Source: Candidatus Poribacteria bacterium
GTDB lineage: Bacteria > Poribacteria > WGA-4E > PCPOR2b
Direction of reading: 5' to 3'
DNA: 64,000 bases
NCBI GenBank assembly: GCA_965205075.1
Contig: OZ242036.1
Location: 4,928,800 to 4,992,799 of the forward strand
Every line of letters begins with the position of its first letter. Within the stretch, counting starts at the first letter, position 1. The translations under genes and the position numbers were made by a program. Below, one piece after another: positions 1-22,528 of this stretch. The notes beneath the pieces are model-generated. The model worked only from the letters and a program-made list of their open reading frames with translations, was not told where the DNA came from and made no database searches.

Positions 1-738
1 GATGGGGAACTCGTCCCAACCTCGTGGGCGGATGCGCTGAATCTCATTGTGGAAAAATTCTCTGAAACCGATGCGGAATCAATCGCCGTCATCGGCTCTG
101 CCCAAGGCACCAATGAGGAGAATTACCTACTAGGCAAACTAGCGCGTGAAGTCCTTAAAACGGAGTCGATCGGTCTATTTGGACGCGAGCCGGGTGAGGA
201 ACACAAATTCCCACAATTCACCATTGACGCCGACAAAAACCCGAACACTCGTGGTGCACTGGACATGCTCAGACTGGGAGATGATGCCTCCTTAACGGGG
301 GACGCACTTTGGACTGGAATAGCAAATGCAAAGGTCGTTTATCTAGTGAATGGAGCACCCGAACGCCCCCTTGATGAGACAGCGAAGCAGGCGTTGGAAG
401 CGGTCGATTTTCTGGTTGTGCAGGATATCTTTGAATCTGATGTGGCGCAATTGGCTGATGTGGTTCTCCCAGGGGTCACCTTTGCGGAGAAGGATGGCAG
501 TTTCACCAACGCAAAGGGCTGGGTGCAACGGATACATCGGGCTGTCGATCCTCCCGGCGAGGCGCGTGTTGATTGGGAAATTATTCAACAATTAGCCAAG
601 CGGTTGGGTGGTGAGATGGACTATCATTTTGCCGGTGAAATTGCGTTGGACATTGCGGAAAATGTCCCCGATTATCAAGACGCTACGCACCAGAAGATTG
701 GGGATGGTGGCGTCAATCTCGCTAGCGGAGATAGTTGA
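1..738 (+). CDS. nuoG: NADH-quinone oxidoreductase subunit G, C-terminal fragment (5' end lies outside the window; reading frame is open from nt 1)
   Basis: Frame 1 is open from position 1. Motifs are typical of the NuoG/molybdopterin-oxidoreductase-like C-terminal domain (DVVLPGVTFAEKDGSFTN, GEARVDWEII). It lies directly upstream of nuoH. Confidence 0.7.
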   Translation, partial: DGELVPTSWADALNLIVEKFSETDAESIAVIGSAQGTNEENYLLGKLAREVLKTESIGLFGREPGEEHKFPQFTIDADKNPNTRGALDMLRLGDDASLTGDALWTGIANAKVVYLVNGAPERPLDETAKQALEAVDFLVVQDIFESDVAQLADVVLPGVTFAEKDGSFTNAKGWVQRIHRAVDPPGEARVDWEIIQQLAKRLGGEMDYHFAGEIALDIAENVPDYQDATHQKIGDGGVNLASGDS

Positions 739-825
739 TAATACTCATGATGAAGGATTATTCCGAGAAGACTTGGGATTGGCGCATCTTGGAACAGATT
801 CGGAGAGCATGTTGAGGATATCAAA

Positions 826-1029
826 ATGCAAATAGGAGTTACAGAACAGAAGCTCTACGAGATTGTCAAACAGGTTGTTTCAGAAGTAATAGATGATAGA
901 CTTGAAAAACTGAAGGATGAAATACGTTTGGCTGCACTGTACGCTGAGTTCGCTGATGAAGACCGAAAGCTCGCTGATGAAGGGTTGTCAGATTATAACG
1001 AAGGATTGACAAAAGAGAATACTTTATGA
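826..1029 (+). CDS. small acidic helical hypothetical protein (possible partner of the downstream nucleotidyltransferase)
   Basis: 67-aa ORF with a coiled-coil-like Glu/Lys-rich sequence and no recognisable motif; it abuts the MNT-type nucleotidyltransferase gene. Confidence 0.3.
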   Translation: MQIGVTEQKLYEIVKQVVSEVIDDRLEKLKDEIRLAALYAEFADEDRKLADEGLSDYNEGLTKENTL

Positions 1030-1072
1030 TTGTTAAGCGCAGTGAAATCTGGCTTACAGAGTAGAGAATGAG

Positions 1073-1375
1073 ATGAAATTAGACTCGAGACAAATCTCAG
1101 AAATTGGTGATTATTTCAAAGATAAGCCGGTGCTGAAGGCATACCTCTTTGGATCATGCGCTAGGGATGAGGCTGATGATAAGAGTGATATAGATATCTT
1201 GGTTGAGCTAGATTATGCACAACCGATTGGTTTAGAATTTGTCCAAATGCAGTTAGATTTACAAGATTTGCTAAACAGACAGGTGGATCTACTTTCGCAA
1301 AAAGCTATCTCAAAACACATTCAACCCTACATCGAACAAGACAGAGTGCTAGTCTATGCGAGGAGATCTGGGTGA
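1073..1375 (+). CDS. nucleotidyltransferase-domain protein (Pol-beta superfamily, MNT-type antitoxin-like)
   Basis: Motif GSCARDEADDKSDIDILVE (GS-x10-DxD) is characteristic of the minimal nucleotidyltransferase fold; 100 aa. Confidence 0.7.
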   Translation: MKLDSRQISEIGDYFKDKPVLKAYLFGSCARDEADDKSDIDILVELDYAQPIGLEFVQMQLDLQDLLNRQVDLLSQKAISKHIQPYIEQDRVLVYARRSG

Positions 1376-1423
1376 TCGGGCAAGACTTCAATATACATTA
1401 TAAACATCGAGATAGGGAGAGAT

Positions 1424-2602
1424 ATGGACTTACCACTTCACGTTTTAATCATTAGCTCACTCATCAAAATTGTTGTCGTCGTTCATCTGCTGCTCATCGG
1501 TGTCATGGCGATGATTCTTGCCGAGCGGAAAGTGAGCGGATGGATTCAAGATCGACACGGTCCCAACCGTGTTGGCCCTTGGGGTATTCTGCAGCCGATC
1601 GCCGACGGCGTAAAATTTCTGCTGAAAGAGGACCTCGTTCCAGACCATGTGGATAAACCGATCTATCTACTCGCACCCGCGATTATTTTAGTACCTGCAC
1701 TAGTTACCTGCGGGGTTGTGCCCTTTGGTAGTTCAATAACAATCTCAGGCTATGAGATTCCTCTGCAAATCGCTGATATTAATATCGGGGTTCTGTATAT
1801 TCTGGCAATCACCTCGTTGGGAGTCTATGGCGTCGTGCTTGGCGCATGGGCATCGAACAACAAGTACTCGCTGCTCGGTGGCTTGCGCTCTTCCGCACAG
1901 ATGATTAGCTACGAATTGACACTAGGGCTTTCGCTTATCGGCGTTCTGATGCTTTCAAGTTCGTTAAGCCTCCGAGAAATCGCAATCCAACAAGGAAGTT
2001 ATCCTTGGACTTGGAATTTCCTTATCCATTTCCCCGCTTTTTTAGCCTTTACCACCGCTGCCTTTGCGGAGACCAATCGTCTCCCCTTCGATCTCGCCGA
2101 AGCGGAACAGGAACTTGTCGGCGGATACCATACAGAATATAGCAGCATGAAGTTCGCTATGTATTTCATGGCGGAATATATGCACATGATTGTCGGCTCG
2201 GCGGTAGCTGTCACCCTTTTCTTGGGTGGTTGGCATTTCTTCGGGCTAGAAACGCTTGGTGGTCCTTTTTGGAGTGGTGTGATTTCATTCGGAATCTTCT
2301 TCACCAAAACAGCATTTTTCCTCTTTGTCTTTATCTGGGTGAGATGGACACTACCTCGATTCCGGTATGACCAACTTATGAATCTTGGCTGGAAATTTCT
2401 ACTACCCATTGCGCTCACAACAATCGTTGTAACAGGGACAGTTTGGGCGTTCACACAATCGAAACTCCTTGTGGGCATATTAAATGTCGTCGCCGCTGCC
2501 ATCGTTGTTGCAATCGTAGCAACTACATTGGTGATGAAGCGGGAACTTGAGCCGGTTGATGATAGAGGTGTTCTGAGCTTTACCGAAAAGTCTTCATCTT
2601 AA
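1424..2602 (+). CDS. nuoH: NADH-quinone oxidoreductase subunit H
   Basis: RBS GGGAGAGA is present. Polytopic membrane protein with typical NuoH/ND1 sequence (QDRHGPNRVGPWGILQPIADGVKF, ETNRLPFDLAEAEQELVGGY); it carries an extra C-terminal TM extension. Confidence 0.9.
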   Translation: MDLPLHVLIISSLIKIVVVVHLLLIGVMAMILAERKVSGWIQDRHGPNRVGPWGILQPIADGVKFLLKEDLVPDHVDKPIYLLAPAIILVPALVTCGVVPFGSSITISGYEIPLQIADINIGVLYILAITSLGVYGVVLGAWASNNKYSLLGGLRSSAQMISYELTLGLSLIGVLMLSSSLSLREIAIQQGSYPWTWNFLIHFPAFLAFTTAAFAETNRLPFDLAEAEQELVGGYHTEYSSMKFAMYFMAEYMHMIVGSAVAVTLFLGGWHFFGLETLGGPFWSGVISFGIFFTKTAFFLFVFIWVRWTLPRFRYDQLMNLGWKFLLPIALTTIVVTGTVWAFTQSKLLVGILNVVAAAIVVAIVATTLVMKRELEPVDDRGVLSFTEKSSS

Positions 2603-2647
2603 TAACTACCGCAGGCTATAACAAGCCTCTGATTTACAAGGATACGC

Positions 2648-3349
2648 ATGGCTGAACAGATTCTGTTTATTATCTTTGGGGTACTAGCCGTTGGTTCTGC
2701 GATATGCGTCATCGCATTTAGGAATCCGATTCACAGTGCGCTGGCATTGGTCCTGACCTTCTTCTCATTGGCAGGGTTGTTTATCTCGTTGGGAGCGTAC
2801 TTTGTTGCCGCTGTGCAGGTGATTGTCTATGCCGGCGCAATTATGGTGCTGTTCCTGTTTGTGATTATGTTGCTCAATTTAGGAAGGCTTCAAACAACAC
2901 GCCAAATCAACAAAGCAAAAGTGTTCGCTGTCATTGTGGGGATTCTGCTCGCAGCGGAGGCAATTTACATCGGAATCAAAGCGTATGATGGCACTGCCGT
3001 TGCGCCTTCTCAGGGCGGGAATGAAGTGGTTGGTGCAGCGATTACTTCGGAACAACTGGACAAGATTACGGAAATTGCATCCACCTATCAACTTGACCGT
3101 GCAGAAATCAATAGCACCTACGTGCCAAACATTGCTGAACAAAAGAACACTGTAGAAACACTCACCGTAGGTGAAGCGAATCAACTCATCGCAAAACTTC
3201 AGGGAGAAATGGGCAAACCCGACCGGATTGGCACGATACTATTTACGAAGTTCTTATTACCTTTTGAGGTAACATCGCTTGTACTGCTTGCAGCTTTAAT
3301 CGGCGTCATCGTGCTTGTTAAACGTGAGGATCCAGACACGGCTGCTTAA
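2648..3349 (+). CDS. nuoJ: NADH-quinone oxidoreductase subunit J
   Basis: NuoJ/ND6-like N-terminus (AVGSAICVIAFRNPIHSALALVLTFFSLAGLF), with a long hydrophilic insert and C-terminal TM. Confidence 0.8.
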   Translation: MAEQILFIIFGVLAVGSAICVIAFRNPIHSALALVLTFFSLAGLFISLGAYFVAAVQVIVYAGAIMVLFLFVIMLLNLGRLQTTRQINKAKVFAVIVGILLAAEAIYIGIKAYDGTAVAPSQGGNEVVGAAITSEQLDKITEIASTYQLDRAEINSTYVPNIAEQKNTVETLTVGEANQLIAKLQGEMGKPDRIGTILFTKFLLPFEVTSLVLLAALIGVIVLVKREDPDTAA

Positions 3350-3370
3350 TTGTAAACTAGGGGTTGAAAC

Positions 3371-3670
3371 ATGGCTTTGCAATACTATCTTATTTTAAGT
3401 GCGCTGCTCTTTACTATCGGAGTGATTGGTGTGCTCATCCGAAGAAATGCAATCATCATCTTCATGTGCATCGAACTGATGCTCAACGCAGCAAATCTCG
3501 CTTTCGTCGCAATCGGTCGAGAGTTAGGGGATGCTTCAGGGCAGATTTTTGTGTTCTTCGTCATGACCGTCGCTGCCGCCGAAGTTGCCATCGGACTCGC
3601 GATTATCGTGAGTGTTTTCAGACACCGTGAAACAATTAACATCGATGAGATCAACTCGATGAAGGGATAG
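3371..3670 (+). CDS. nuoK: NADH-quinone oxidoreductase subunit K
   Basis: 99-aa 3-TM protein with the canonical NuoK/ND4L sequence ([31 protein letters not shown]). Confidence 0.9.
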
Positions 3671-3681
3671 GCACATCTGAA

Positions 3682-5565
3682 ATGTCGAAAGACCTAATAA
3701 CTATACTTCTGATTTCCCCACTGATTGGGTTTCTAATCAACGGATTGTTCGGGAAATGGCTAAAAAATGTGAGCGGTTGGATCGCATCACTCGCGGTGCT
3801 CATATCGTTCATTATTAGTGCATTCGTCGTATTTCCTGCGGTCCGTGGCGGTGGAGAATTAAAGGAAACGCTCTACGAATGGATCCCCATCGAATCTCTT
3901 AACATTGGCTTCCATGTCGATGCACTGACCACAGTGATGCTTCTCGTTATCACAGGGGTTGGCTTCCTCATTCACATCTATTCAATCGGCTATATGAGCC
4001 ATGATTCGGGAAGAGCGCGCTACTTTGCCTATCTCAACCTGTTTGTGTTCGCAATGTTAATCCTCGTTTTGGGGAATAATTATCTGATGATGTTCATCGG
4101 TTGGGAAGGCGTTGGACTCTGTTCTTATCTATTGATCGGTTATTGGTTCGAGAGAAAATCTGCCACCGATGCCGGCAAGAAGGCTTTCATCGTCAATCGA
4201 ATCGGCGATTTTGGATTCCTGCTTGGGATGTTCACCCTGTTTGCTGCGTTTGGCACATTGAATTTTGACCAGATGTTTGGGCTCGCCGAAACCAACACTT
4301 ATGAGCAGGTTTTCGGGGCAAGTACACTTATCGTTGCAACGCTGCTCCTCTTCGTCGGTGCCGTAGGGAAGTCCGCGCAAATCCCGCTCTACGTCTGGCT
4401 CCCCGATGCGATGGAGGGTCCGACGCCAGTTAGCGCGTTGATCCATGCTGCCACGATGGTCACGGCTGGCGTTTACATGGTCGCACGCTCATCAATCCTG
4501 TTTAACCTAGCACACACAGGTATTGTCGTCGCTTGGATCGGCGTCCTCACTGCCCTATTCGCTGCGACGATGGCGTTGACCGCAAATGACATCAAGCGGG
4601 TGCTGGCATATTCGACTGTGAGCCAACTCGGTTATATGTTCGTGGGTGTAGGGGTTGGCGCGTATACTTCTGGGATTTTCCACCTAATGACACACGCTTT
4701 CTTCAAAGGGCTGATGTTCCTCACCGCTGGTAGCGTGATGCACGCCATGTCAGATGAACTGGATATGCGGAAAATGGGCGGGTTGAAATCGAAGCTACCG
4801 ATTACCTACTGGACATTCCTCATCGGTGCTCTTGCAATTGCGGGTTTCCCGCTCTTGAGCGGTTTCTGGAGTAAAGACGAAATCTTACACAACGCTTGGG
4901 ATGGTGGACACCAAATAATTTTTGGGATTGGGCTGCTGACAGCGTTTTTAACGGCGTTCTATATGTTCCGTCTAATCTTTGTCGTCTTTCACGGTGAGTC
5001 GCGCGTCGATTCAGAGGTTGAGTCACACCTCCACGAATCGCCGCCAGTGATGTGGATCCCGCTCGTGTTGTTAGCAATTCCTTCTCTAATTATCGGTGCA
5101 ATTGTCGGCTGGGGTGGAGAACATAGCGCGATGCATCATTTCTTGGAAAGCGTGAAAGGATTTAAACACCATGGCATAGCAGATCACAGCAATCCAGTCC
5201 CCTTCATGATCATTTCATCAATTGTCGGTATTGCAGGCATTCTGGTCGCGTGGTTCATATATCGCAGCAAAGCACCCCTCGATGAACCAACAAATCCGCT
5301 GCACAAACTCCTCGCTAACAAATACTACATTGACGAAATCTATAACACTGTTTTCGTGCAGCCGATACGGGGCGTATCTCACTACCTGTTCTGGAAGATC
5401 ATGGATGTCGGCATCATCGACGGGCTTGTGAATCTAACTGCATTTATTATTCGCGGCATCGGCGGCTCGATTCGACGACTCCAGACGGGCGTTGTTCAAG
5501 CCTATGTTGTCTCAATGGTCATCGGCATCATCATTTTCTTGGGATATTATCTGTTTATTCGCTGA
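3682..5565 (+). CDS. nuoL: NADH-quinone oxidoreductase subunit L
   Basis: 627-aa antiporter-like subunit with the WLPDAMEGPTPVSALIHAATMVTAG motif and long C-terminal helix region. Confidence 0.9.
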   Translation: MSKDLITILLISPLIGFLINGLFGKWLKNVSGWIASLAVLISFIISAFVVFPAVRGGGELKETLYEWIPIESLNIGFHVDALTTVMLLVITGVGFLIHIYSIGYMSHDSGRARYFAYLNLFVFAMLILVLGNNYLMMFIGWEGVGLCSYLLIGYWFERKSATDAGKKAFIVNRIGDFGFLLGMFTLFAAFGTLNFDQMFGLAETNTYEQVFGASTLIVATLLLFVGAVGKSAQIPLYVWLPDAMEGPTPVSALIHAATMVTAGVYMVARSSILFNLAHTGIVVAWIGVLTALFAATMALTANDIKRVLAYSTVSQLGYMFVGVGVGAYTSGIFHLMTHAFFKGLMFLTAGSVMHAMSDELDMRKMGGLKSKLPITYWTFLIGALAIAGFPLLSGFWSKDEILHNAWDGGHQIIFGIGLLTAFLTAFYMFRLIFVVFHGESRVDSEVESHLHESPPVMWIPLVLLAIPSLIIGAIVGWGGEHSAMHHFLESVKGFKHHGIADHSNPVPFMIISSIVGIAGILVAWFIYRSKAPLDEPTNPLHKLLANKYYIDEIYNTVFVQPIRGVSHYLFWKIMDVGIIDGLVNLTAFIIRGIGGSIRRLQTGVVQAYVVSMVIGIIIFLGYYLFIR

Positions 5566-5579
5566 AAGGGGCGAGTATC

Positions 5580-5861
5580 ATGGACAAGAATGCTGGAAAA
5601 CTCGAAAAAATTGTGCCAATCAATATGCGGGAATTTGATGAGAAAAGCGATGAGGTCTATGAGAAATTGAAGTCTGAATTGGAAGATAAATATTACGGGC
5701 TTATCGTCGCCATCGAGCCATACAGCGGCGATTATTTTGTCGGTAAAAATGTTATTGAGGCAGGCGACAAGGGGAAACAAAAGTATCCTGATAAGCTCTT
5801 TTATTTTGTTCGCCCGGGTTTTAGAGCAGTACACCGAGATCGGGGAAGGGTGTCGGTTTGA
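5580..5861 (+). CDS. DUF5678-like small protein (usual partner of retropepsin-like protease)
   Basis: 93 aa; pattern KYYGLIVAIEPYSGDYFVGKNVIEAGD...YFVRPGFRAV matches the small protein family that precedes clan-AA protease genes. Its stop overlaps the next start (GTTTGA/ATG region). Confidence 0.45.
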   Translation: MDKNAGKLEKIVPINMREFDEKSDEVYEKLKSELEDKYYGLIVAIEPYSGDYFVGKNVIEAGDKGKQKYPDKLFYFVRPGFRAVHRDRGRVSV

Positions 5862-6241
5862 TACGCGGCTATTTTGATGATGTAGGGCAGCCGCGGATTG
5901 CAGTATCTATATTTGGCAACCGTGGGGAACTAACGATTGATGCAGTGATCGATACGGGATTTGATGGTTCTTTGTGCCTTCCCTTGTCGCTTGCAATTCC
6001 ATTAGGGCTCGAATTACATGGACGTATCAACTACGAACTTGCCGATGGGACTATCAAACGTAAATTGACATTTGAAGCAACTATCCGTTTGGGCGAAGCG
6101 ATGAATCAGGTAGAGATCTCCCTCACAGAATCTGAGGATGCATTACTCGGAAGCGAACTCTTAGATGGCTATGTTTTAGAAATTGACTATAGCAACCGGA
6201 CGGTTGAAATTAGGGAATCACCTACGAATCACGAAGCGTAA
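5858..6241 (+). CDS. retropepsin-like (clan AA) aspartic protease
   Basis: Active-site motif AVIDTGFDGSL (D-T-G) lies in a 127-aa protein; the start overlaps the preceding ORF by 4 nt. Confidence 0.65.
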   Translation: MIRGYFDDVGQPRIAVSIFGNRGELTIDAVIDTGFDGSLCLPLSLAIPLGLELHGRINYELADGTIKRKLTFEATIRLGEAMNQVEISLTESEDALLGSELLDGYVLEIDYSNRTVEIRESPTNHEA

Positions 6242-6280
6242 AAATTTTACGTTTAACGCATTACACTTCGGAGGTTATAC

Positions 6281-7819
6281 TTGCTACTTTCCGCAGTTAT
6301 CTTTTTACCACTACTCGGCGTAATTTTAATTGCTCTTGCCAGGCACATCTTAGGCGCGTCAGGGCTTAAATGGATCGCCCTAATCGTCACACTGCTCACC
6401 TTTGCCGTGTCGATATCGCTCTATACCGGTTTCGACGCAAGTACGCATGAGATGCAGTTTAAGGAGGAGCGAGCTTGGATTGAAGGGCTTGGTATAAGCT
6501 ACCACCTCGGCATTGACGGTATCTCGCTCTGGTTAGTTCTGCTGACCACTTTTATGACGCCGATTTGTGTGCTAGCAGCATGGAATTCGATAGAAAAGGG
6601 TGCCAGCGGATTCATGATTTCCTTGCTCATGCTCGAAACGGCGATGCTCGGCGTGTTTTGTGCGTTAGACCTCTTCCTCTTTTTTGTGTTTTGGGAGGCG
6701 ATGCTCATCCCGATGTATTTACTCATCGGTATCTGGGGTGGACATCGGCGCATCTACGCGACCATTAAGTTTGTCCTGTACACAATGGCGGGCAGCGCGT
6801 TGATGCTCGTTGGGATTTTGTACCTCTATTTCCAAAATGATAATAGTTTCAACCTGATGACCTTGTACGGCAGATCACTATCGCATCAGAACCTACTGTT
6901 CTTGGCGTTTTTCATCGCTTTTGCCATCAAAGTACCACTTTTCCCCTTCCACACTTGGCTGCCTGACGCACACGTTGAAGCACCGACAGTTGGAAGTGTT
7001 ATTCTTGCTGGCGTATTGCTCAAAATGGGAACATACGGCATCGTCCGCTTCTGTATGCCACTTTTCCCGGAGGGTGTCGCAGCGTATACGCCATTGATTG
7101 TAACGCTGTCTGTAATTGGTATAATTTACGGCGCATTGGTCGCAATGGTGCAACCAGACCTAAAAAAATTGGTTGCCTATTCAAGTGTGAGTCATTTGGG
7201 GTTTGTTGTGCTTGGACTTTTCGCTCTCAACCATCACGGCGTGCAGGGCGGTATTCTTCAAATGATTAATCACGGGTTAAGCACCGGCGCACTTTTCTTG
7301 CTCGTTGGGATGATTTATGAACGCCGGCATACCCGTATGATTGCTGACTTCGGTGGATTGTCAAAACAGATGCCGATCTTCGCCGTATTTTTTATGATTG
7401 TGACGCTTTCATCAATTGGGTTACCCGGTTTGAACGGATTTGTCGGGGAGTTTATGATTTTGCTCGGCGGCTTCATGTCCGATTCATTCTCTAAAGTTTA
7501 CGCTATTATCGCTGCAACCGGTGTTATTTTGGCAGCGGTGTATATGCTCTGGATGTTCCAGCGCGTCATGTTTGGCAAACTCGATAACCCAAAAAATCAA
7601 ACCTTGACCGATTTGAGCTTGCGAGAAATCGTTGTACTGGTTCCAATAGTAGTGTTCATCATTTGGATTGGCGTTTACCCCAAACCGTTTCTGAACCGAA
7701 TGGAAAAATCAGTCAGTCAAGTATTACAACAGAGCAGATCTACGGCAGCGGTAGAGGCAGCTGCTCCCGCAATTGCATTAGACACCACAACAAAAGAGGC
7801 AAAAAAGATTGACGAATAA
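6281..7819 (+). CDS. nuoM: NADH-quinone oxidoreductase subunit M
   Basis: TTG start is 6 nt after a GGAGG RBS. Antiporter-like subunit motifs are present ([31 protein letters not shown]). Confidence 0.9.
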
Positions 7820-9557
7820 ACACCTATTTTTCCCCTTGGCACTTCTCGGTGTCATTGGACTTATTCTCTTACCGACAATTGGTTTTGCAGCGGCAGCCGC
7901 AGGTGGAGATGGACACGATGACCACGCCGGCCATCACGGCGTCGACGGAGCGAAGTTACCTCTCTGGAGCATCATTCCGTTTGTTGGAATGCTCCTCTCC
8001 ATTGCAATTGTCCCACTGATTAACTTCCATTTCTGGGAACATCACTACGGGAAGTTCTCGTTAGCGTGGATTGTCATTCTCTCTATCCCCTTCCTTATCG
8101 CCTACAAAGGTGATGGTTGGTACGAAATCGTCCATATTGTCCTGCTCGATTATGTCCCCTTCATTATTCTATTGGCCGCACTATTCACATGTGCGGGTGG
8201 AATCTGTCTGAAAGGTTCGCTGCGCGGTTCGCCTGTCGTAAATACCATACTGATCGCCATAGGAACCGCTTTGGCAAGTTGGATGGGAACGACGGGGGCG
8301 GCAATGCTGCTGATTCGTCCAATACTCCGGGCTAACGAATGGCGTAAGCATCGTGTTCATGTTGTTGTCTTTTTTATATTTCTTGTAGCCAATATCGGTG
8401 GCTCACTGACACCGTTGGGCGATCCGCCGCTGTTTCTCGGATTCCTCAAAGGAATTGATTTCTTCTGGACAATGGCACTGCTCCCTGCGATGATACCGGT
8501 GGTAATTTTACTGCTGATCATATTCTTCATTTTCGACACAGTCATGTTCAAGAAAGAAGGAACGCCGCCGGACGATGGGGAAAAAGAACCACTCCGTCTC
8601 CAAGGTGTTTGGAATTTTGTGCTAATTGCCGGTATCATCGGTGCGATCCTGTGGTCCAAATCACTCGCTGATGGTCCTTTCAAGGATCATTCAGTCGCGC
8701 AAAAAATGGCACCACAAATCAAAGCCGCAGAAGAAAAAATGGACGCAACGAAGGCAAAACTCGAAGCGTATGTCAAGAAACATAAAAACAACGCGACGAT
8801 AAATTTCGACAAATCCAATCACGAATACTATGAATTGCGAAAAAACGACCTCCACGCCGTGGCTAAAGTCAATAGTTTGCGTGCCCAAAAGACACATGAT
8901 GAAAATCGCGGTATTTCAATCTTCGGTGTAACTGTACCATACTTTAATTTGATGCGCGATGGTTTACTGCTCTTGATTGCCTTCATCAGTCTGTTGTACA
9001 CACCAATGTATAAAACCGTGAAAGATGAGCACGGACATAATCAGCCTGAACCGAGTCAGTTGGAGACAAATGTCCGGGCAGCAAACGGTTTTACGTGGGA
9101 GCCAATCCTAGAGGTTGCCAAACTGTTTATCGGTATTTTTATCTGTATGATTCCAGCTTTGAAAATTTTGCAGGCGGGCATTGATGGAAGCCTTAGCAGT
9201 GTTGTGCTTGCCGTTCAGACGCCAACGAACGATCCGGTCAATGCGATGTATTTTTGGCTGACAGGTGTGCTCTCAAGTTTCTTGGATAACGCTCCGACTT
9301 ACGTCGTCTTCTTCAACACAGCGGGTGGAGATCCAACCTCGCTCATGGGTCCGATGGCGCAGACGCTCTTGGCAATCAGTTGTGGCGCAGTGTTTATGGG
9401 GGCTAATACCTATATCGGCAATGCACCAAACTTTATGGTCAAAGCAATTGCTGAGGAAAACGGCGTGAGGATGCCAAGTTTCTTCGGATACATGCTTTGG
9501 TCAGTGGTAATTTTGGTTCCCGTGTTTGTGATTGTAACGTTCGTGTTCTTTGTGTAA
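7809..9557 (+). CDS. ArsB/NhaD-superfamily (ion-transporter superfamily) permease embedded in the nuo operon
   Basis: Polytopic membrane protein of about 12 TM. C-terminal motifs ([23 protein letters not shown]) are typical of NhaD/ArsB/CitMHS-type permeases. N-terminus is His/Asp-rich ([16 protein letters not shown]). Central hydrophilic coiled-coil insert of about 85 aa. Start assignment (TTG overlapping the nuoM stop) is uncertain. Confidence 0.55.
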
Positions 9558-9596
9558 GGATGGGCCTATCTGTTCATCTAAGATTGGAGGATTTGA

Positions 9597-11027
9597 ATGA
9601 CAATTAACTGGCAACTACTGATGCCCGAATTGATCATTATTCTAACTTTTATCCTCGTTGTGATTTTTGATCTGTTCAATTCGCTTCAAAAGACGTTTAC
9701 CGCTTGGATCACAATCGTCGGCTGCGCTATTGCTCTATATGTTTCCATTGATATGCTGCAAATTGGCACGGAAGGCACAGAATTTAGCAATATGATTCAG
9801 GTGGATAAATACTCCCTCTTTTTCAATGTCATATTCTTGGTTTCAACGATTCTGGTCGTTCTTATTTCAATGAACTATTTGGGCGGTCAAGATCGGCGAC
9901 AGGGGGAGTATTATCTGTTAATCCTTTTGGCAACGTTGGGTATGATGTTGATGGCTTCGGGCAATGAGTTAATTGTTGTCTTCCTCGGCTTAGAGCTGAT
10001 GTCGTTATCGCTTTACGTCTTAGCAGGTTATTTCCAAAGGAGTATGGCATCAAGCGAAGCCGGAATGAAGTATCTGCTACTTGGCGCATTTGCAAGTGGA
10101 TTTTTCTTGTACGGTATCGCGTTGATCTACGGAGGTGCGGGGACAACCAGCATTCCCGAAATTGCCTCCGCTTTAACCGTAGATGCAAGGTCCCCGCTAC
10201 TGCTATCTGGCATGTTTCTACTTGTTGTAGGATTCGGATTCAAAGTGGCACTTGTGCCGTTTCATCAGTGGGCACCCGATGTCTACGAAGGCGCACCCAC
10301 TTCGATCGCTGCATTTATCTCAGCCGGTCCGAAAGCAGCGGGGTTTGCTGCGTTCCTGAGAATCTTCATGGACGCGCTACAGAACCTCCAATCCGAATGG
10401 ATTATTCTTATTACAATCCTTGCCGCACTCACGATGACTGTCGGCAATTTAGTTGCCATCGCCCAGCGAAACATTAAGCGTATGCTCGCTTATTCAAGTA
10501 TTGCCCATGCTGGATATGTTTTGGTCGGATTAGCAGCAGCAAACAAAGACGGAATCTCCGGCGCGATGTTTTACCTGTTTGTCTACTGTGTCATGAACAT
10601 CGGGGCATTCGGAGCAGTGATTCTCGCAAGAACCGAAGACGGCGAAAGCCTTATGATTTCCGATTACGCAGGACTGGGATTCAAAAAACCGCTGCTCGCT
10701 CTGTTCATGACAATAATGTTGCTATCCCTCGCTGGGTTTCCACCGACAGCGGGATTCGTCGGTAAGTTCTACATTTTCCGATCGGCGGTCGAATCTGGAC
10801 AGATCTGGCTTGTGATTATCGGTGCGATTAACACTGCGATCTCTGCGTTCTACTATCTCCGTGTTGTTGTAGCGATGTACATGAGAGAGCCGGAAGCGGA
10901 ACTCGACTTTCTCGCCTATCCACGTCTACTCATCGTCGCGTTGACCCTCGCAGCGATCGGTGTCGTCCTAATTGGTATTCTGCCATCATACTTCCTGAGT
11001 CCAGCCCAAATTAGCACGTTCTTATAG
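9597..11027 (+). CDS. nuoN: NADH-quinone oxidoreductase subunit N
   Basis: RBS GGAGGA is present; antiporter-like subunit with the NuoN/ND2 sequence (FHQWAPDVYEGAPTSIAAFISAGPKAAGF). Confidence 0.9.
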   Translation: MTINWQLLMPELIIILTFILVVIFDLFNSLQKTFTAWITIVGCAIALYVSIDMLQIGTEGTEFSNMIQVDKYSLFFNVIFLVSTILVVLISMNYLGGQDRRQGEYYLLILLATLGMMLMASGNELIVVFLGLELMSLSLYVLAGYFQRSMASSEAGMKYLLLGAFASGFFLYGIALIYGGAGTTSIPEIASALTVDARSPLLLSGMFLLVVGFGFKVALVPFHQWAPDVYEGAPTSIAAFISAGPKAAGFAAFLRIFMDALQNLQSEWIILITILAALTMTVGNLVAIAQRNIKRMLAYSSIAHAGYVLVGLAAANKDGISGAMFYLFVYCVMNIGAFGAVILARTEDGESLMISDYAGLGFKKPLLALFMTIMLLSLAGFPPTAGFVGKFYIFRSAVESGQIWLVIIGAINTAISAFYYLRVVVAMYMREPEAELDFLAYPRLLIVALTLAAIGVVLIGILPSYFLSPAQISTFL

Positions 11028-11037: not shown

Positions 11038-11316
11038 ATGGCTAAGCTGATACGGGGTAGCGATTGGAATAGTATGGATCTGGCTTCAATTGGCATCACC
11101 CTTGTGCTGGCAATTGGCATTGGATCTGGGTTGGGCTGGTGGATCGGTGGTAAATTAGGTAACCAAACGATCGGCTTAATTATTGGCTTTATCGTCGGAA
11201 CTGCGGCAGGATTTATTGAGATGTTTCGCGCCGTTTCTCGGTGGAATAAACGCATGGACAGCCAAGAGCAACAAGCAGATCAGGCAGCTGAGAAACATTC
11301 GGAGGAGGAGTCGTAA
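11038..11316 (+). CDS. atpZ: AtpZ/AtpI-family small membrane protein (ATP synthase operon leader gene)
   Basis: 92 aa with two TM helices, a glycine-zipper sequence (GIGSGLGWWIGGKLG) and an acidic C-tail, placed immediately before atpI/atpB as in many F-ATPase operons. Confidence 0.5.
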   Translation: MAKLIRGSDWNSMDLASIGITLVLAIGIGSGLGWWIGGKLGNQTIGLIIGFIVGTAAGFIEMFRAVSRWNKRMDSQEQQADQAAEKHSEEES

Positions 11317-11317
11317 A

Positions 11318-11719
11318 GTGGTTGACCGCGCCCCCTTTGAACTCGATGACCGATTTCTGCTGCAGGTCTATCGTCTGACGACCGTTCTTGCGCTCATCGC
11401 AATGCCAATCCTTTGGGCGGTGTACGGTCTGCCAGCCAGCTTGAGTTTTGCTATCGGCAGTCTTTTGAGTTTGAGCGCGATCTTGTCATTAGAGTTTATC
11501 ATCCGCCGCATGGTCAAGCCCGGCAGTTCGCCAAGGACAAAACGTTGGCTGGGATTCATCGCGTTAGGAAAGTATACAATCATCTTTGTCGGATTTTATC
11601 TCTTGACGAAAGCAAATTGGCTGAATGTCTACACCCTTGCAGCGGGAATTGGATTGGTGCAAGTTGTGATTATCCTCAAAGCAATCGTGATGATGATCGG
11701 TGTTCTATCAAAAAAATAA
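11318..11719 (+). CDS. atpI: ATP synthase protein I-like membrane protein
   Basis: GTG start is preceded by GGAGGAGGAG; about 133 aa with 4 TM. The 5' part of the long track ORF 11183..11719 overlaps atpZ in another frame and is probably not translated. Confidence 0.45.
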   Translation: MVDRAPFELDDRFLLQVYRLTTVLALIAMPILWAVYGLPASLSFAIGSLLSLSAILSLEFIIRRMVKPGSSPRTKRWLGFIALGKYTIIFVGFYLLTKANWLNVYTLAAGIGLVQVVIILKAIVMMIGVLSKK

Positions 11720-11734
11720 TTCAACAGGAACTAA

Positions 11735-12574
11735 ATGAGAAAAACATTTTACACACTATTTTCTATTTTACTGCTATCGCTGCTCGCCTGTAGTGTCGGT
11801 TTAGCCGCTGAAGAAGCCCATCGTTCGTGGCTAAGCCCAATATCAAAAATTCTTCCGGATGATATAGTGCCAGAACCACAGCGTTGGCATCAGCCGGATC
11901 TCATCCCCAACGCTTACTTTATAGTATTGGTTATTGCACTGCTTTTTATCATTTCGACACGCAAACTTAAGCGACTCCCCGAAGGAAAGGGGCAAACACT
12001 CCTTGAGTTGTTCGTGGGTGGGCTGATCAATTTTTTCGGCGGAATCTTGGGAGAGCACGGAAAGAAGTATGTCCCATTCGTCGGATCTTTCTTCATCTTT
12101 ATCTTATTCCTCAACTATCTTGGCCTTATACCCGGTTTTCAATCACCAACAGCAGATTTGAACACCACCCTCGCGCTCGGAATTAGCGCAGTAATCGGCG
12201 TTCATATCATTGCGATTAAGGAAAATGGATTGGTTGGCTACCTGAAACACTTTATCGGCGATCCACCGTGGCTGGGACCTTTGATGTTTCCGTTACACAT
12301 CATCGGTGAAATCGCACGCGCCGGTTCTCTGGCAATTCGACTTTTCGGAAATATCTTCGGTGAGGAATCCGTTATTATTAACCTAACCTTGTTGGGGCTT
12401 GCAATTCCGGCGATCGCCGGGCTGATCCCATGGATGCCAGTTCAGGTGCCAATGCTATTTTTCGGGCTATTTGGTGGGTTTCTGCAAGCACTCGTTTTCT
12501 CAATTCTCACATCAATCTACATTGTTACGTTCCTAGCACATGATGAGGAACATGGTGCGGAGGCACATCATTGA
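11735..12574 (+). CDS. atpB: F0F1 ATP synthase subunit a
   Basis: Conserved subunit-a region LAIRLFGNIFGEE with the essential Arg; 279 aa. Confidence 0.9.
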   Translation: MRKTFYTLFSILLLSLLACSVGLAAEEAHRSWLSPISKILPDDIVPEPQRWHQPDLIPNAYFIVLVIALLFIISTRKLKRLPEGKGQTLLELFVGGLINFFGGILGEHGKKYVPFVGSFFIFILFLNYLGLIPGFQSPTADLNTTLALGISAVIGVHIIAIKENGLVGYLKHFIGDPPWLGPLMFPLHIIGEIARAGSLAIRLFGNIFGEESVIINLTLLGLAIPAIAGLIPWMPVQVPMLFFGLFGGFLQALVFSILTSIYIVTFLAHDEEHGAEAHH

Positions 12575-12660
12575 TTGATGGGCGATTATTATCGCTCGTT
12601 TAACATTGTTTTTAGTTTTCTAATCCCAGTTTTGGGATCAAAATTAAAGGAGGAAGTTTC

Positions 12661-12960
12661 ATGATTTATCTCGCAGTTTTAGCTTTCGGGACGGCACTCG
12701 GTCTACCGATTGCCGTGATTTTTGCATCCACCGCACAAGCAAGAGCGACGAGCACCGCTCTCGAAGGGATTGCGCGGCAACCTGAAGCAGCACCAAGGAT
12801 TCAGACAGCAATGATCATCGGTTTGGCTCTTATCGAATCGCTCGTGATCTACTCGCTGCTAATCTTCTTCTTGCTTATGGGAAAACTCCCAGAGGGACAA
12901 ATGCTTCAAAGTATGATTGAGGCTGATGCTCAGAAACAGGTGCAGACCAGTCAGCAATAA
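12661..12960 (+). CDS. atpE: F0F1 ATP synthase subunit c
   Basis: Strong RBS AAAGGAGGAA. c-ring hairpin with the GLALIESLVIYSLLIF proton-binding Glu region. Unusual 22-aa hydrophilic C-terminal tail. Confidence 0.9.
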   Translation: MIYLAVLAFGTALGLPIAVIFASTAQARATSTALEGIARQPEAAPRIQTAMIIGLALIESLVIYSLLIFFLLMGKLPEGQMLQSMIEADAQKQVQTSQQ

Positions 12961-13020
12961 GACGTGAAGCGTGAAACGTGAAACGTGAATCTATTAACGT
13001 TTTACGTTTTACGTTACACA
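12961..13020 (+). promoter_or_regulatory. ACGT-heptad imperfect hairpin between atpE and atpF
   Basis: (ACGTGAA)x3 followed after a 7-nt spacer by (ACGTTTT)x2-ACGTTAC, roughly complementary to the first arm. Confidence 0.4.
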
Positions 13021-13071
13021 CGCATTACTTTTCTTAGGCTTATGCAACACCCTAACTTAAAGAAAAATATA

Positions 13072-13674
13072 ATGACAAAATTAACGTGGTTCTGTTTATT
13101 GCTTATTATCAACGTAATATTAATTGCTCCGACAAGTGGGTTCGCTGCAGAGGCAAGTGCCGAGAAACAGGGAATCTTAGCACAAATTGGAATTGATTTC
13201 CAAACTATTATCCTTCAAGCACTAGGCTTTCTTGTTGTGCTACTCGTGCTCTGGAAATTCGTCTTTGGGCGAATTGGTGGACTATTAGAAGAACGGCAAC
13301 AGGAAATAACTTCGAGAATGGAGAAACTGGAGGCGGATCAAAGCGAACTGGATCGATTGAATGCCGAAACCCGTCAACGGCTCAACGAGATTGAAACGGA
13401 AGGACAGGCAAAGATTCAAGCGGCTATTGATGAGGGCAACGCCGAACGGCAGCGGATTCTTGATCAAGCACGTCAGGAAGCCAGCGCAGAACTTGAACGG
13501 GCACGTGCCGAGATCCAACGCGAAAAGGACGAAGCTATCCTCGAACTACGAGGCACTGTCGCAGAGATTGCGATTGATGCTGCTAGCAAAATCATCAATC
13601 AGACGCTCGATGCAGAGAAACATCAGCACATCATTGATGAATCTATCAGCCGCCTTCCCACACAGAACGTCTAA
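13072..13674 (+). CDS. atpF: F0F1 ATP synthase subunit b
   Basis: N-terminal TM followed by a long charged coiled coil (EERQQEITSRMEKLEADQ...). ATG 13072 is chosen because upstream in-frame codons from 12985 overlap the intergenic hairpin. Confidence 0.75.
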   Translation: MTKLTWFCLLLIINVILIAPTSGFAAEASAEKQGILAQIGIDFQTIILQALGFLVVLLVLWKFVFGRIGGLLEERQQEITSRMEKLEADQSELDRLNAETRQRLNEIETEGQAKIQAAIDEGNAERQRILDQARQEASAELERARAEIQREKDEAILELRGTVAEIAIDAASKIINQTLDAEKHQHIIDESISRLPTQNV

Positions 13675-13689
13675 TACAAAGAATACACG

Positions 13690-14229
13690 ATGAGAGAAAC
13701 CCGCATTGCTAAACCCTATGCACAAGCATTGTATAGCGCAGCGACAGAGCAGGATATTTTAGATCAGATCATTACAGATGTGAATCAAATCCTTCAACTG
13801 ACACAGGACTCGGAAGATTTTGATCAGTTTCTGACTAACCCCATCCTATCGCCGCAGTTTAAGAGCGAGATGTTCCAACAACTTCTATCCGAAACTGTTC
13901 ATCCGCTCACGCTCAATTTTCTGCTCTTGCTAGCATTGAAACAACGTGAAAGATCCTTAGTTGCAATCTTACAGATGTTTCTGGAGATCGTTGATGTGCA
14001 AGCGGGTCGTGTTGTCGCACAGGTAACATCGGCGGTCCCGCTCACTGACGCACAAAAAGCCACCCTCTCTCAGCAACTGAGCGATTATTCGGGGGCGGAG
14101 GTGCGGCTTGAATTGAATGAAGATACCGCGATTCAAGGAGGCGTCATCGTGCGATTAGGGGATACTGTGTTTGATGGAAGTATCATATCACAGCTTCAAC
14201 GAATGAGAACACTACTCGCGAGGGGATAA
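13690..14229 (+). CDS. atpH: F0F1 ATP synthase subunit delta (OSCP)
   Basis: 179 aa; typical delta N-terminus (IAKPYAQALYSAA) and C-terminal GGVIVRLGDTVFDGS motif. Confidence 0.8.
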   Translation: MRETRIAKPYAQALYSAATEQDILDQIITDVNQILQLTQDSEDFDQFLTNPILSPQFKSEMFQQLLSETVHPLTLNFLLLLALKQRERSLVAILQMFLEIVDVQAGRVVAQVTSAVPLTDAQKATLSQQLSDYSGAEVRLELNEDTAIQGGVIVRLGDTVFDGSIISQLQRMRTLLARG

Positions 14230-14244
14230 GGGAGAACATAACTC

Positions 14245-15771
14245 ATGGCAAGAGAAGTCAGACCCGACGAAGTATCAAACATTCTAAAACAACAACTACT
14301 ACAATATAGCCAACAGGTCGATGTGTACGATTCAGGAACTGTGCTCGAGGTTGGCGACGGGATTGCCCGTGTGCATGGACTTGCCAACGTCATGGCAAGT
14401 GAAATGATTGAATTTCCCAACGGCGTTGCCGGTATGGCATTTAACCTTGAAGAGGATAACGTTGGCTGCGTCCTTTTCGGCGAGGATAAACTAATCCACG
14501 AGGGGGATCTCGCTAAGCGGACGAACAGATTGCTCGAAGTGCCGGTCGGCGAGGCGTTGCTAGGGCGCGTTGTAAACGCTCTCGGCCAACCTATTGATGG
14601 CAAAGGGGAAATCCAGACCGAACACACCCTCCCTGTTGAACGGAAGGGGTTGGGTATTGTGCAACGTCAGCCGGTAAGCGAACCGCTTTATACCGGCTTG
14701 AAGGCGATTGACAGTATGACGCCAATCGGACGGGGGCAACGGGAGCTAATCATCGGCGACCGTCAAACGGGCAAAACGGCTATTCCGATTGATACCATCA
14801 TTAACCAGAAAAATACCGATGTATTCTGTATCTATGTAGCAGTCGGTCAGAAAGGTTCGACGGTTGCACAGGTTGTGGATACCCTAGAACAGCATGGCGC
14901 AATGGATTACACGGTTGTCGTTTCTGCACCGGCAAGTGAACCCTCCCCGCTCCAATACCTCGCACCCTACACAGGGACCTCGATGGGAGAATACTTCCGC
15001 GATAGGGGACAACACGCGTTAGTTATTTACGATGATCTCACCAAACATGCGTGGGCGTATCGTCAGATGTCGCTGCTTTCACGGCGTCCACCGGGGCGCG
15101 AAGCGTATCCGGGTGATGTCTTTTATCTCCACTCCCGTCTGTTGGAGCGCGCTGCAAAACTCAGTGATGAACTAGGCGGTGGTTCGTTGACCTCTCTGCC
15201 GATTATCGAAATCTTTGAAGGCGACCTCACGACTTACATCCCAACAAATGTGATTTCAATTACCGATGGACAGATCTATCTAACATCGGAACTCTTCAAT
15301 CAAGGCGTTCGCCCGGCAATCGATGTCGGCACCTCGGTGTCCCGCGTTGGTGGTGACGCCCAAACGCGAGCGATGAAGTCGGATGAAGTCGCAGGGACGC
15401 TGAAACTTGACCTAGCTAGCTTCCGAGAGGTTGCCGCTTTCGCACAGTTTGGATCTGATCTGGACGCTTCTACACAATCTCAACTTAGGCGTGGAGAACG
15501 GCTCGTTGAATTGCTGAAACAACCCCAATACGAACCAATGCCCGTTGAAAAACAGGTTGCATCAATTTTCTGTGGCTCAAACGGCTACTTGGATGATATT
15601 GAAACAACTGACGTGGCACAGTTTGAATCTGAATTCTTGGCATATATGGAAAGAAACCACGCAGACATACTCAAGGCGATTGTTGATACCGGAGAACTCA
15701 GTGATGAACTGATTGAACAACTCAGCACCGCTGCACAGAGTTTTAAAGACGGATTCAAGCCTGAAGCATAA
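14245..15771 (+). CDS. atpA: F0F1 ATP synthase subunit alpha
   Basis: Walker [10 protein letters not shown] and highly conserved alpha-subunit sequence throughout. Confidence 0.95.
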
Positions 15772-15984
15772 TACGTGATGCGTAATACGTAATACCAAAA
15801 ACTATGAATTATACTGAAATCATCCGACTATTGCTCGTGATGGTCTCAAGTCAACGAAAGCCAGATTTGAAAGAAGAAGTCGAAGTATATACAGTAGATG
15901 CAGCAGATATAGAATCACATTCACCCGTGTAAAGAAGGCTCATGTACTCCTTACGTATTACGCATTACTCATTAGAGGTTCAGC

Positions 15985-16851
15985 ATGGCAACATTACGTG
16001 AAATTAGACGGCGTATCGCAAGTATTGAGAATATCGCGCAGGTAACAGATGCGATGCGCGTGGTTGCTGCGGCGAGGTTACGCCGGGCACAGGAAAGTAT
16101 CCTAGCCACCCGCCCCTTCGCCGATAAATTCAACACAATTTTAGGGCATCTGATCGCTCAAATCGAAAACCCCTCCCATCCATTGCTAGAATCGCGTGAA
16201 CTTAAGCGCGTTTGCCTAATCTCAGTCTCCGCAGACCGCGGGCTATGTGGTAGTTTTAATAGCAACGTGATCCGAACAACAACGCAGCGGGCAGAACATT
16301 ACCAAGAGCAGGGAGCAGAAGTGACAGTCATCTGTGTTGGCAGACGGACCCGCGACCATTTCGCACGGCGTGATTATAACGTTATCGCTGAGTATGTGAA
16401 TATCTTTCGGCAATTGGCATTTGAAACCGCTGTCGAAATTGTGGAGGAGTTTGAGCATCTGTATCGCGATAAGCAGGTTGATAGGGTGGAAGTGATTTAT
16501 AACGATTTCAAATCCGCGATTCTACAAGAAGTTTTGGTTGAGCAACTGCTGCCACTTACCCCTGAAGTGCCAACCGGCGATGAACTCTTTCTCGATTATC
16601 TTTATGAGCCAGAACAAGAGGTAATTTTTCAGTCTGTATTGGCAAAACACCTCAATATGCAGATGTGGAAAGTTTTGTTGGATTCCAACGCCGCGGAGCA
16701 AGCAGCGCGGATGGCGGCGATGGAAAATGCGACGCGCAACGCCAATGAGCTTATTGATGATTTAATTCTTCAGCGTAACCGCGCTCGCCAGACCCAGATT
16801 ACCACAGAGATTTCTGAGATTGTAAGTGGTGCAGCAGCCCTAGAGGGGTAA
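15985..16851 (+). CDS. atpG: F0F1 ATP synthase subunit gamma
   Basis: 288 aa; gamma signature N-terminus (MATLREIRRRIASIENIAQVTDAMRVVAAARLRRAQ) and C-terminus. Confidence 0.9.
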   Translation: MATLREIRRRIASIENIAQVTDAMRVVAAARLRRAQESILATRPFADKFNTILGHLIAQIENPSHPLLESRELKRVCLISVSADRGLCGSFNSNVIRTTTQRAEHYQEQGAEVTVICVGRRTRDHFARRDYNVIAEYVNIFRQLAFETAVEIVEEFEHLYRDKQVDRVEVIYNDFKSAILQEVLVEQLLPLTPEVPTGDELFLDYLYEPEQEVIFQSVLAKHLNMQMWKVLLDSNAAEQAARMAAMENATRNANELIDDLILQRNRARQTQITTEISEIVSGAAALEG

Positions 16852-16877
16852 AATCGGCAAAGTGGGTAGCGTCCTCA

Positions 16878-17297
16878 ATGTGGGAGGAAAATCGAGTCAT
16901 GAGCCTACAGAAACCCATCATCATCAATCAGGCAGAGCTCGCTTGGGAAAGTTGGGAGGACGCGGACCTTGCTGCCAAGAGTGCGATCCGCTGGAAACTT
17001 CTGGTTACCGGCGAAAGAGGACCGAGCAGCGGACTCGTTACGGGTGTAGCGGAGTTTCCACCTGACACCCAGCTCCCTCTTCACCACCATGAGCCAGAGG
17101 AAACATACTATGTCGTCAGCGGCAATGGTCACATGGTAATTAGTGATCGCGAATCAGAAATTGGGCCGGGGTCAGCGATCTACATCCCGTCCAACGCCAA
17201 ACATGCAGTCCGTTGTATTGGCGATGAACCACTAGTTTTTGTGTTCACCTTCGCATGTGACCGATTTGACCAAATAGTTTATCATTTCGATGAGTAG
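16878..17297 (+). CDS. cupin-domain protein
   Basis: Cupin motifs HHHEPEETYYVVSGNGHM and GPGSAIYIPSNAKHAV. Translation may start at ATG 16899, 11 nt after GGGAGGA. Confidence 0.6.
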   Translation: MWEENRVMSLQKPIIINQAELAWESWEDADLAAKSAIRWKLLVTGERGPSSGLVTGVAEFPPDTQLPLHHHEPEETYYVVSGNGHMVISDRESEIGPGSAIYIPSNAKHAVRCIGDEPLVFVFTFACDRFDQIVYHFDE

Positions 17298-17334
17298 AAA
17301 CCGTTCGCGGTAGATGTGATTATGAGGTGGAAAC

Positions 17335-17808: not shown

Positions 17809-17864
17809 TTCTATTCCGATCAGGACCTACGCAAATTTAGCACGCGGCGCGAGATTTTTTTTAA

Positions 17865-20868: not shown

Positions 20869-20914
20869 CAGCCAACTCACTATATTAGGACTCACACAGT
20901 TAAACGCCTCAAGC

Positions 20915-21100: not shown

Positions 21101-22528
<1,428 letters not shown>

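Follow-up and report, generated by a model that had tools for sequence, protein, structure and literature searches.

What is a transporter gene doing among the genes of respiratory complex I? The question is raised by a 64-kb stretch of Candidatus Poribacteria DNA (the window, by which we mean the whole stretch analysed), where an open reading frame (ORF) at 7809..9557 on the + strand, here called gene X, lies between nuoM and nuoN. Judged from the ORF, Pfam, an AlphaFold2 model, fold matches and homolog names, its product of 582 amino acids (aa) is a CitMHS_2 (PF16980) transporter belonging to the ion-transporter (IT) superfamily and a probable NhaE-type Na+/H+ antiporter. The explanation that we favour, and consider probable, is that X is an independent elevator-fold Na+/H+ antiporter of the NhaE type, co-expressed with the redox pump and the ATP synthase and interconverting H+ and Na+ gradients.

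Position and junctions of gene X

The original prediction started from a 582-aa transporter ORF within the complex I operon, overlapping the nuoM stop. The ORF and the scores of its two neighbours agree with this description: nuoM (6281..7819, +) encodes 512 aa and matches TIGR01972 with 656 bits, and nuoN (9597..11027, +) encodes 476 aa and matches TIGR01770 with 462 bits. At the nuoM/X junction (7794..7819, +), an AAGAGG ribosome-binding site at 7794-7799 precedes the TTG start of X (7809-7811) by 9 nt, and the nuoM stop codon TAA occupies 7817-7819. The start of X and the end of nuoM thus overlap by 11 nt, which suggests translational coupling. The overlap is identical at a homologous locus, L081 (locus handles are ours), and at L013 and L025 the two genes abut or overlap by 4 nt. 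X ends with TAA at 9555-9557, and the 39 nt from there to the nuoN ATG at 9597 include a GGAGG at 9586-9590.

Upstream of X, on the same strand, runs a string of membrane-arm genes: nuoH (1424-2602), nuoJ (2648-3349), nuoK (3371-3670) and nuoL (3682-5565). Downstream, the ATP synthase operon begins only 10 nt past nuoN, its first part (11038..16851, +) consisting of a PF09527 gene, atpI, atpB, atpE, atpF, atpH, atpA and atpG. Neither X junction contains a promoter-like or terminator-like site, nor are such sites in excess of shuffle expectation. The GC content is 0.45-0.48 throughout, X being the same as its neighbours. Tight junctions, the lack of promoter- or terminator-like sites in them, and uniform GC therefore mark X as a well-integrated member of the operon. 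As had been proposed, X is very probably co-expressed with the nuo genes, to judge from these sequence features. A recent horizontal insertion of X was considered and rejected, given the uniform GC and the conserved position of the gene.

Fold, conserved core and added segments

X matches the Pfam profile CitMHS_2 (PF16980) with 592.3 bits against a cut-off of 25.7, in two stretches that cover the profile and leave an insert between them. A weak secondary match to CitMHS (PF03600) reaches 51.5 bits, more than 500 bits less. PF16980 is present in all listed homologs of X, the closest of which belong to Candidatus Poribacteria (88-98% identity), and close homologs bear the NCBI name 'sodium:proton antiporter' and the JGI name 'NhaD/arsenite permease-like'. 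The family comprises 4262 clusters at 50% identity (E <= 1e-3), 926 of them with E <= 1e-30. No ArsB model in Pfam or NCBIfam and no NhaD model in NCBIfam matched X at E <= 0.01, the NhaD model being TIGR00775. The DASS/SLC13 model TIGR00785 aligned over a single short stretch, its 22.7 bits falling below the cut-off of 198.6, and a sequence search against solved structures returned noise only (E >= 0.28).

The AlphaFold2 model of X, built from 77 homologs, has a mean predicted local distance difference test (pLDDT) score of 77.7 and a predicted template-modelling (pTM) score of 0.75. It consists of two repeats, the first with a hairpin at residues 142-175 and a broken helix at 183-213, the second with a hairpin at 478-504 and a broken helix at 517-550. 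Foldseek matched the model with probability 1.00 to ArsB, Pho90, INDY, VcINDY and NaDC1, the template-modelling score to ArsB being 0.63 when normalised to the target; NaS1 was also matched, and TRAP SiaQM appeared lower down. By this model X is a permease with the elevator fold of the IT superfamily, and the placement in that superfamily made by the original prediction is borne out by the fold matches to ArsB, VcINDY, Pho90 and NaDC/NaS1. Its narrower label, NhaD/ArsB, holds at the level of the superfamily and fails for NhaD or ArsB specifically, since neither model was matched.

The closest solved folds are those of ArsB (PDB 10tp), VcINDY (4f35/6okz), Pho90 (8r35), NaDC1 and NaS1. ArsB and the DASS proteins share with X a pair of inverted repeats, each with a re-entrant hairpin and a broken helix, and a division into scaffold and transport domains, an architecture that implies an elevator mechanism for X. 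They differ from it in sequence (11-13% identity, 13% for ArsB), in their anion or metalloid cargo, and in having no periplasmic hairpin or His-rich tail.

The predicted transport core is where the family is most strongly conserved. In repeat 1 (8286..8435, +), it includes the hairpin-1 tip GTTGAA (160-165) and a broken helix (195-209) with the near-invariant D205; in repeat 2 (9273..9434, +), it includes the hairpin-2 tip (489-498), with the invariant D493, and the broken helix TYIGNAPNF (534-542). The tips of the hairpins and the breaks of the helices carry the invariant or near-invariant residues D205, D493, N195, N494, N538, N541, T161 and T497. Buried Asp, Asn, Thr and Ser residues in the membrane are as expected for a cation site, and conservation analysis showed the hairpin tips to lack conserved basic residues. 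The C-terminal motifs on which the original prediction had relied, including NAPTYVVFF, do rank among the most conserved of the family, and two patterns, [LF]S[SA][FV]LDN[AT]PT and [TS]YIGN[AG]PN[FL], served us for the locus scan reported below.

Onto this core the poribacterial protein adds several segments. Residues 1-30 (7809..7898, +) form, by hydropathy and homolog layout, a signal-peptide-like helix or an additional transmembrane helix (TM0) that ends in an Ala run with an A-x-A type site; the helix is signal-like, with a cleavage site that is predicted only. Residues 32-47 (7902..7949, +) form a His/Asp-rich segment, probably periplasmic, that closes with a conserved HG[VI][DE]G before TM1. 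A signal-like N-terminus followed by a His-rich, putatively metal-binding segment had been noticed in the original prediction, and helix and segment are indeed present. All compared proteins of Poribacteria and Balneolaceae have the signal-like helix, the A-x-A site and the HG[VI][DE]G motif before TM1, and the His/Asp-rich expansion between site and motif is poribacterial. Its length varies even among proteins of 95-98% identity, a GHDDHSN unit occurring one to three times, and the nqr-linked orthologs described below have a longer version; no tandem repeat in the DNA underlies the window copy.

The largest addition, insert A (8661..8912, +; about residues 285-368), comprises 82 residues if bounded at about 287-368 and is modelled as a charged two-helix hairpin (294-325 and 338-364), probably periplasmic, that emerges between TM7 and TM8 on the scaffold side. 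Its motifs include KMAPQI and SN.EY..LR..HLHAV..VN.LRA.K.HDE, and its helices are predicted with a pLDDT of about 87-94. The insert is kept down to about 71% overall identity and is missing from most of the family; searched alone against Pfam, it gave no match. Its hydrophobic moment at 3.5-3.6 residues was not above that of shuffled sequences, a fraction of 0.09-0.54 of which reached the observed value. As the heptad signal is not significant, 'helical hairpin' is the safer term. The insert sits between helices 1 and 2 of repeat 2, the repeat boundary lying at about 250-262. Of the charged coiled-coil loop said to split the two transporter halves, the charged insertion stands, and the description as a coiled coil between the halves is imprecise.

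Insert B (9006..9071, +; residues 400-421) is a second His-containing loop (DEHGH), probably cytoplasmic, which in sister lineages carries long His/Asp/Glu runs such as HDSDHDHSEHEHHDHEHH. Most relatives are 410-500 aa long and match X in two blocks. The region 262-432 accordingly has 171 residues in X versus 73 in Balneolaceae, the excess being inserts A and B. We infer a periplasmic location for insert A and the His-rich tail and a cytoplasmic one for insert B from the positive-inside rule (strongly positive loops at 131-141 and 170-184, absence of Lys and Arg from the loops at 460-477 and 505-516), the VcINDY-like fold, and a family member fused at its C-terminus to OmpA (P0133). We would guess that the hairpin, the His-rich tail and the His-rich loop modulate or regulate the transporter, by pH or metal sensing, or else add a contact surface.

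Elsewhere in the family, fusions to a C-terminal OmpA peptidoglycan-binding domain or to N-terminal TPR repeats occur (P0133, P0127, P0223), which suggests periplasmic tethering or interaction modules. As a clue to the substrate, the fused domains (TPR, OmpA, ParB_C) proved uninformative, OmpA backing only a periplasmic C-terminus.

Respiratory pumps beside the transporter

Does the company that X keeps point to its function? Scanning one genome per species gave us 80 loci of the family, all from named genomes and many of them on short contigs. Genes of the nuo operon lie within 6 kb at 11 of the 80, in at least five different arrangements and in several phyla, so that the transporter-nuo linkage is found in other genomes as well. 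The order nuoM-X-nuoN occurs at L013, L014 (Poribacteria), L025 (Neomarinimicrobiota) and L028; at L014 only nuoM and X are visible before the contig ends, and at L025 a Usp gene stands between X and nuoN. X precedes nuoJKLMN at L004 (KSB1), L038 (Cytophagia) and L047, is divergent from nuoLMN at L048 (Balneola) and L052 (Chitinophagales), and lies downstream of nuoN at L031 and L054.

Other redox pumps take the place of complex I elsewhere. Directly upstream of X we found nqrC-D-E-F(-apbE-nqrM) at seven loci (L001, L029, L057, L058, L066, L070 and L072) and only apbE(-nqrM) at L054, which is nuo-linked too, and L075. An rnf-linked locus, L026, reads rnfCDGEAB-usp-rseC-X-usp-apbE, and L015 is similar by tblastn. 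Altogether, about 21 of the 80 loci, or one quarter, place the transporter beside NDH-1 (complex I), NQR or RNF genes, and this is a lower bound, given the many short contigs. In a rough neighbour-joining tree the pump-linked members fall into at least six separate clades, and with a generous background of 0.5% the probability of 7 independent occurrences in 40 lineages is about 1e-9. The position of X is kept across Poribacteria down to 58% identity and also in other phyla. These comparisons support a functional link to respiratory ion pumping, as the original prediction had suggested from the nuo genes. We found no description of the NQR/ApbE or RNF linkage, or of the poribacterial gene, in the searchable literature.

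Usp genes flank the transporter at L025 (7415-7888, in a Marinimicrobia nuo context) and at L026 (4930-5415 and 7411-8283, in a Thermodesulfobacteriota rnf context), and the wider survey met them as a recurrent neighbour at 3 loci. They may be regulatory partners of the transporter.

One activity, Na+/H+ exchange, explains all four contexts, whether nuo, nqr, rnf or atp. X would be transcribed, and probably translationally coupled, with the membrane-arm genes of complex I and with the ATP synthase operon that follows, and co-transcription would make its amount track that of the primary pump. As an independent protein, which like others of this fold is probably a homodimer, it would swap protons pumped by NDH-1 for sodium and serve Na+ and pH homeostasis in a marine bacterium. 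Beside NDH-1 it would export Na+ at the cost of the proton gradient, and beside NQR it would do the reverse. The gene, its family and fold, the operon junctions, the synteny statistics and the distribution of the inserts are results of the analysis; for X we infer the substrate, the direction of exchange, the topology, the dimeric state and the role of the inserts.

Several points weigh against an Na+/H+ antiporter tied to the pump. The IT superfamily consists mostly of anion carriers, the Pfam name of PF16980 is 'putative citrate transport', and the equation of PF16980 with NhaE is one that we draw from names, superfamily and synteny. No pump linkage was seen at 59 of the 80 homolog loci, many of these being on short contigs. 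The nuo and atp operons of this genome tolerate unrelated insertions, which makes position alone weak evidence. Finally, the His-rich segments are similar to stretches of metal transporters and of metal-binding proteins, so that a different or additional substrate of X is possible.

Some of these points would fit a carrier of an anion or organic acid, of a divalent metal, or of flavin exported for ApbE, in which case the synteny would reflect the supply of cofactors or maturation factors. Such a substrate has a small but appreciable chance of being the right one. Besides the habits of the superfamily and the Pfam label, it would explain why ApbE is the commonest immediate neighbour in the non-nuo loci (7 loci), often with NqrM adjacent, and the His/Asp-rich tails and loops look like those of metal-handling proteins. 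A supply of flavin through ApbE fails, however, for the nuo placement, NDH-1 being without periplasmic flavinylation, and a flavin exporter ranks low with us since it leaves the nuo contexts unexplained; FAD (flavin adenine dinucleotide) also appears large for such a binding site. The His-rich segments, for their part, are confined to Poribacteria and variable in length among near-identical proteins, and so do not define the family, and the core offers buried Asp, Asn and Thr rather than conserved basic residues at the hairpin tips.

A further comparison comes from the clade that shares insert A. Its member at L081, with 83% identity to X, lies in the order nuoHJK-L-[transposase]-M-X-N-atp. 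At L001 and L082, with 78% identity and the same insert, the order is nqrCDEF-apbE-nqrM-PhyH-X-atp. At L083 (74%) and L002 (70%) the sequence seen shows neither nuo nor nqr genes, the L083 contig ending 98 bp upstream of X. In both the nuo-type and the nqr-type arrangement the genes form one same-strand string that leads from NADH dehydrogenase through X to ATP synthase. In this stretch (243-9172 at L001, 285-9185 at L082) the genes nqrCDEF-apbE-nqrM-PhyH stand in place of nuo upstream of the X-atp string, with no nuoN between X and atp, which looks like an in-place swap of the type of NADH dehydrogenase in these sister Poribacteria. The 626-aa homolog at L002 (5764-7644), with 70% identity and the insert, comes from a metagenome-assembled genome labelled Planctomycetota and is not near any pump genes; mis-binning or horizontal transfer could account for it.

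Is X then a supernumerary subunit of complex I, docked beside NuoM and NuoN, possibly through the periplasmic hairpin? The position of X between nuoM and nuoN with overlapping stop and start, the recurrence of the M-X-N order in several phyla, and a conserved and confidently modelled hairpin, placed on the scaffold side, that could serve as a contact surface all speak for it. The hairpin does not track embedding among nuo genes, however. It is absent from the M-X-N transporters at L013, L025 and L028, present after nqr at L001 and L082, and present at L083 and L002, where the sequence seen shows neither nuo nor nqr; this argues against both a docking device for complex I and a dedicated subunit. 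Gene order around nuo is varied, and 69 of the 80 loci are without nuo genes in the neighbourhood. In Rhodothermus marinus, proteomics of complex I reportedly found PCD and not the antiporter. A supernumerary subunit, which the original prediction had offered as one form of coupling, therefore appears very improbable: linkage to nuo is limited to 11 of 80 loci in varied order, and the nearest orthologs that share the insert are nqr-linked or show no pump genes. Orthologs with that insert after nqr argue instead for an independent Na+/H+ converter.

The two types of locus differ further in the c-subunit of the ATP synthase. Its motif is Q...ESLVIY in the nuo-linked loci (window 12661-12960, L081 12019-12318) and Q...EAMVIY in the nqr-linked ones (L001 9268-9570, L082 9282-9584). 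The ES motif, a partial Na+-type one, would supply four of the five Na+-binding side chains of the Ilyobacter tartaricus ring, and the EA motif presumably resembles H+-type rings. The contrast, a lead more than a result, is a single comparison between two sister lineages. An extension of the antiporter model would make PF16980 transporters ion-currency adaptors, co-inherited with the redox pump and matched to the ion of the ATP synthase. NDH-1 would then be combined with X and a Na+-leaning c-subunit, and NQR with an orthologous X and an H+-type c-subunit, so that X bridges the gap between a pump and a synthase working on different ions, with the hairpin and the His-rich tail serving this role as a module for regulation or docking. 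We regard this extended scheme as quite improbable.

Other cargo of the operon and known antiporters

The nuo and atp operons of the window carry further genes besides X. Between the nuoG tail and nuoH (826-1375) lies a two-gene cassette: a 67-aa ORF (826-1029) that falls in no family, and a 100-aa nucleotidyltransferase of the MNT type (1073-1375) with matches to Pfam Polbeta/NTP_transf_2 and to PDC-S09, a candidate defence family of PADLOC. The cassette looks like a toxin-antitoxin or defence-type insertion. From nuoH the operon passes to nuoJ across a 45-nt gap (2602-2648) with no nuoI between, as it does at L013, L025 and L081, so nuoI must be encoded elsewhere. The gap between nuoL and nuoM (5580-6241) holds a 93-aa ORF without a family and a 127-aa retropepsin-like clan AA aspartic protease, the latter matching TIGR03698 with 52.5 bits, slightly below the cut-off. 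The same gap contains a DDE transposase at L081 (4589-5368) and a DUF5069 protein at L013 (3804-4235), and it appears to be an insertion hot spot in Poribacteria.

In the atp operon, about 4.2 kb of unrelated genes separate atpG from atpD (16851-21119), after which atpD and atpC follow at 21119-22951. These genes encode a cupin/DMSP-lyase-like protein (16878-17297), a protein with a DJC28_CD domain (17335-17808), a product unmatched in Pfam (18006-18833) and a thiamine pyrophosphate (TPP) enzyme (19072-20868). At L082, atpD directly follows atpG, uninterrupted.

Might X be one more passenger, a housekeeping antiporter hitchhiking in a permissive operon with no specific relation to complex I? 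The nucleotidyltransferase pair, the 93-aa and retropepsin-like ORFs, the differing cargo of the nuoL-nuoM gap in L081 and L013, and the interruption of the atp operon would be in keeping with such a passenger. Unlike these cassettes, X holds its position down to 58% identity in Poribacteria and also in other phyla, and its family is linked to NDH-1, NQR and RNF far beyond chance. We therefore consider a mere hitchhiker unlikely.

An antiporter gene among complex I genes is known from another bacterium. In R. marinus, a pcd gene and an antiporter gene reportedly lie between nqo13 (nuoM) and nqo14 (nuoN) and are co-transcribed. The title of Melo et al. 2005 (BBA 1709:95, PMID 16023073) places a 'NhaD' gene among the complex I genes of this species; the R. 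marinus antiporter is further treated by Melo et al. 2006 (BBRC 348:1011), and NhaE of Neisseria meningitidis by Sousa et al. 2013. The R. marinus antiporter confers resistance to Na+, not to Li+, at pH 6.5-7.5 and founded the NhaE family (Transporter Classification, TC, 2.A.111) in the IT superfamily, in which N. meningitidis NhaE, with Na+(Li+)/H+ antiport phenotypes, is a characterised homolog (PMC9408914). CT_805 of Chlamydia trachomatis has been classed in TC 2.A.111 as well (PMC6490308).

R. marinus thus resembles the window in having the gene of an IT-superfamily antiporter among complex I genes, and the JGI 'NhaD-like' label recurs on homologs of X. Balneola (L048), of the same class as R. 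marinus, has a PF16980 gene that adjoins nuoLMN; a homolog search seeded with the Balneola protein found Balneolaceae only. The R. marinus antiporter gene differs from X in having a pcd gene beside it. No pcd gene lies beside X: orf93 of the window belongs to no family, L025 has a Usp gene instead, and L013 and L028 leave no room. X differs in turn in having the atp operon directly after nuoN, and its protein has about 100 extra residues (insert A and loop B) and an expanded His-rich tail. The genes of N. meningitidis NhaE and CT_805, in comparison with X, are not reported within nuo, nqr or rnf operons, and the proteins have no known inserts.

Two further systems invite comparison. NhaD of Vibrio and Halomonas (TC 2.A.62; CitMHS, PF03600) belongs to the same superfamily as X and has a similar proposed activity, but nhaD genes are stand-alone genes of salt or alkali tolerance. 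Mrp and the antiporter-like subunits NuoL/M/N are, like X on the favoured reading, cation/proton exchange modules genetically tied to complex I. They differ in fold, Proton_antipo_M as against the IT elevator, and NuoL/M/N are integral subunits whereas X is probably independent.

Given the R. marinus report of 2005, the core arrangement is not new. Our analysis extends it to Poribacteria and Marinimicrobia, both uncultured marine lineages, and finds PF16980 beside all three major redox ion pumps, which offers a testable genomic marker for the interconversion of H+ and Na+ gradients. To this the poribacterial clade adds a conserved hairpin, probably periplasmic, and two His-rich segments on a transporter of the elevator type, and such additions on the scaffold side could show how elevator carriers are regulated or tethered. 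If the antiporter role is true, it would also bear on how sodium effects in complex I preparations are read; these would need rereading because a co-expressed antiporter could contribute to them.

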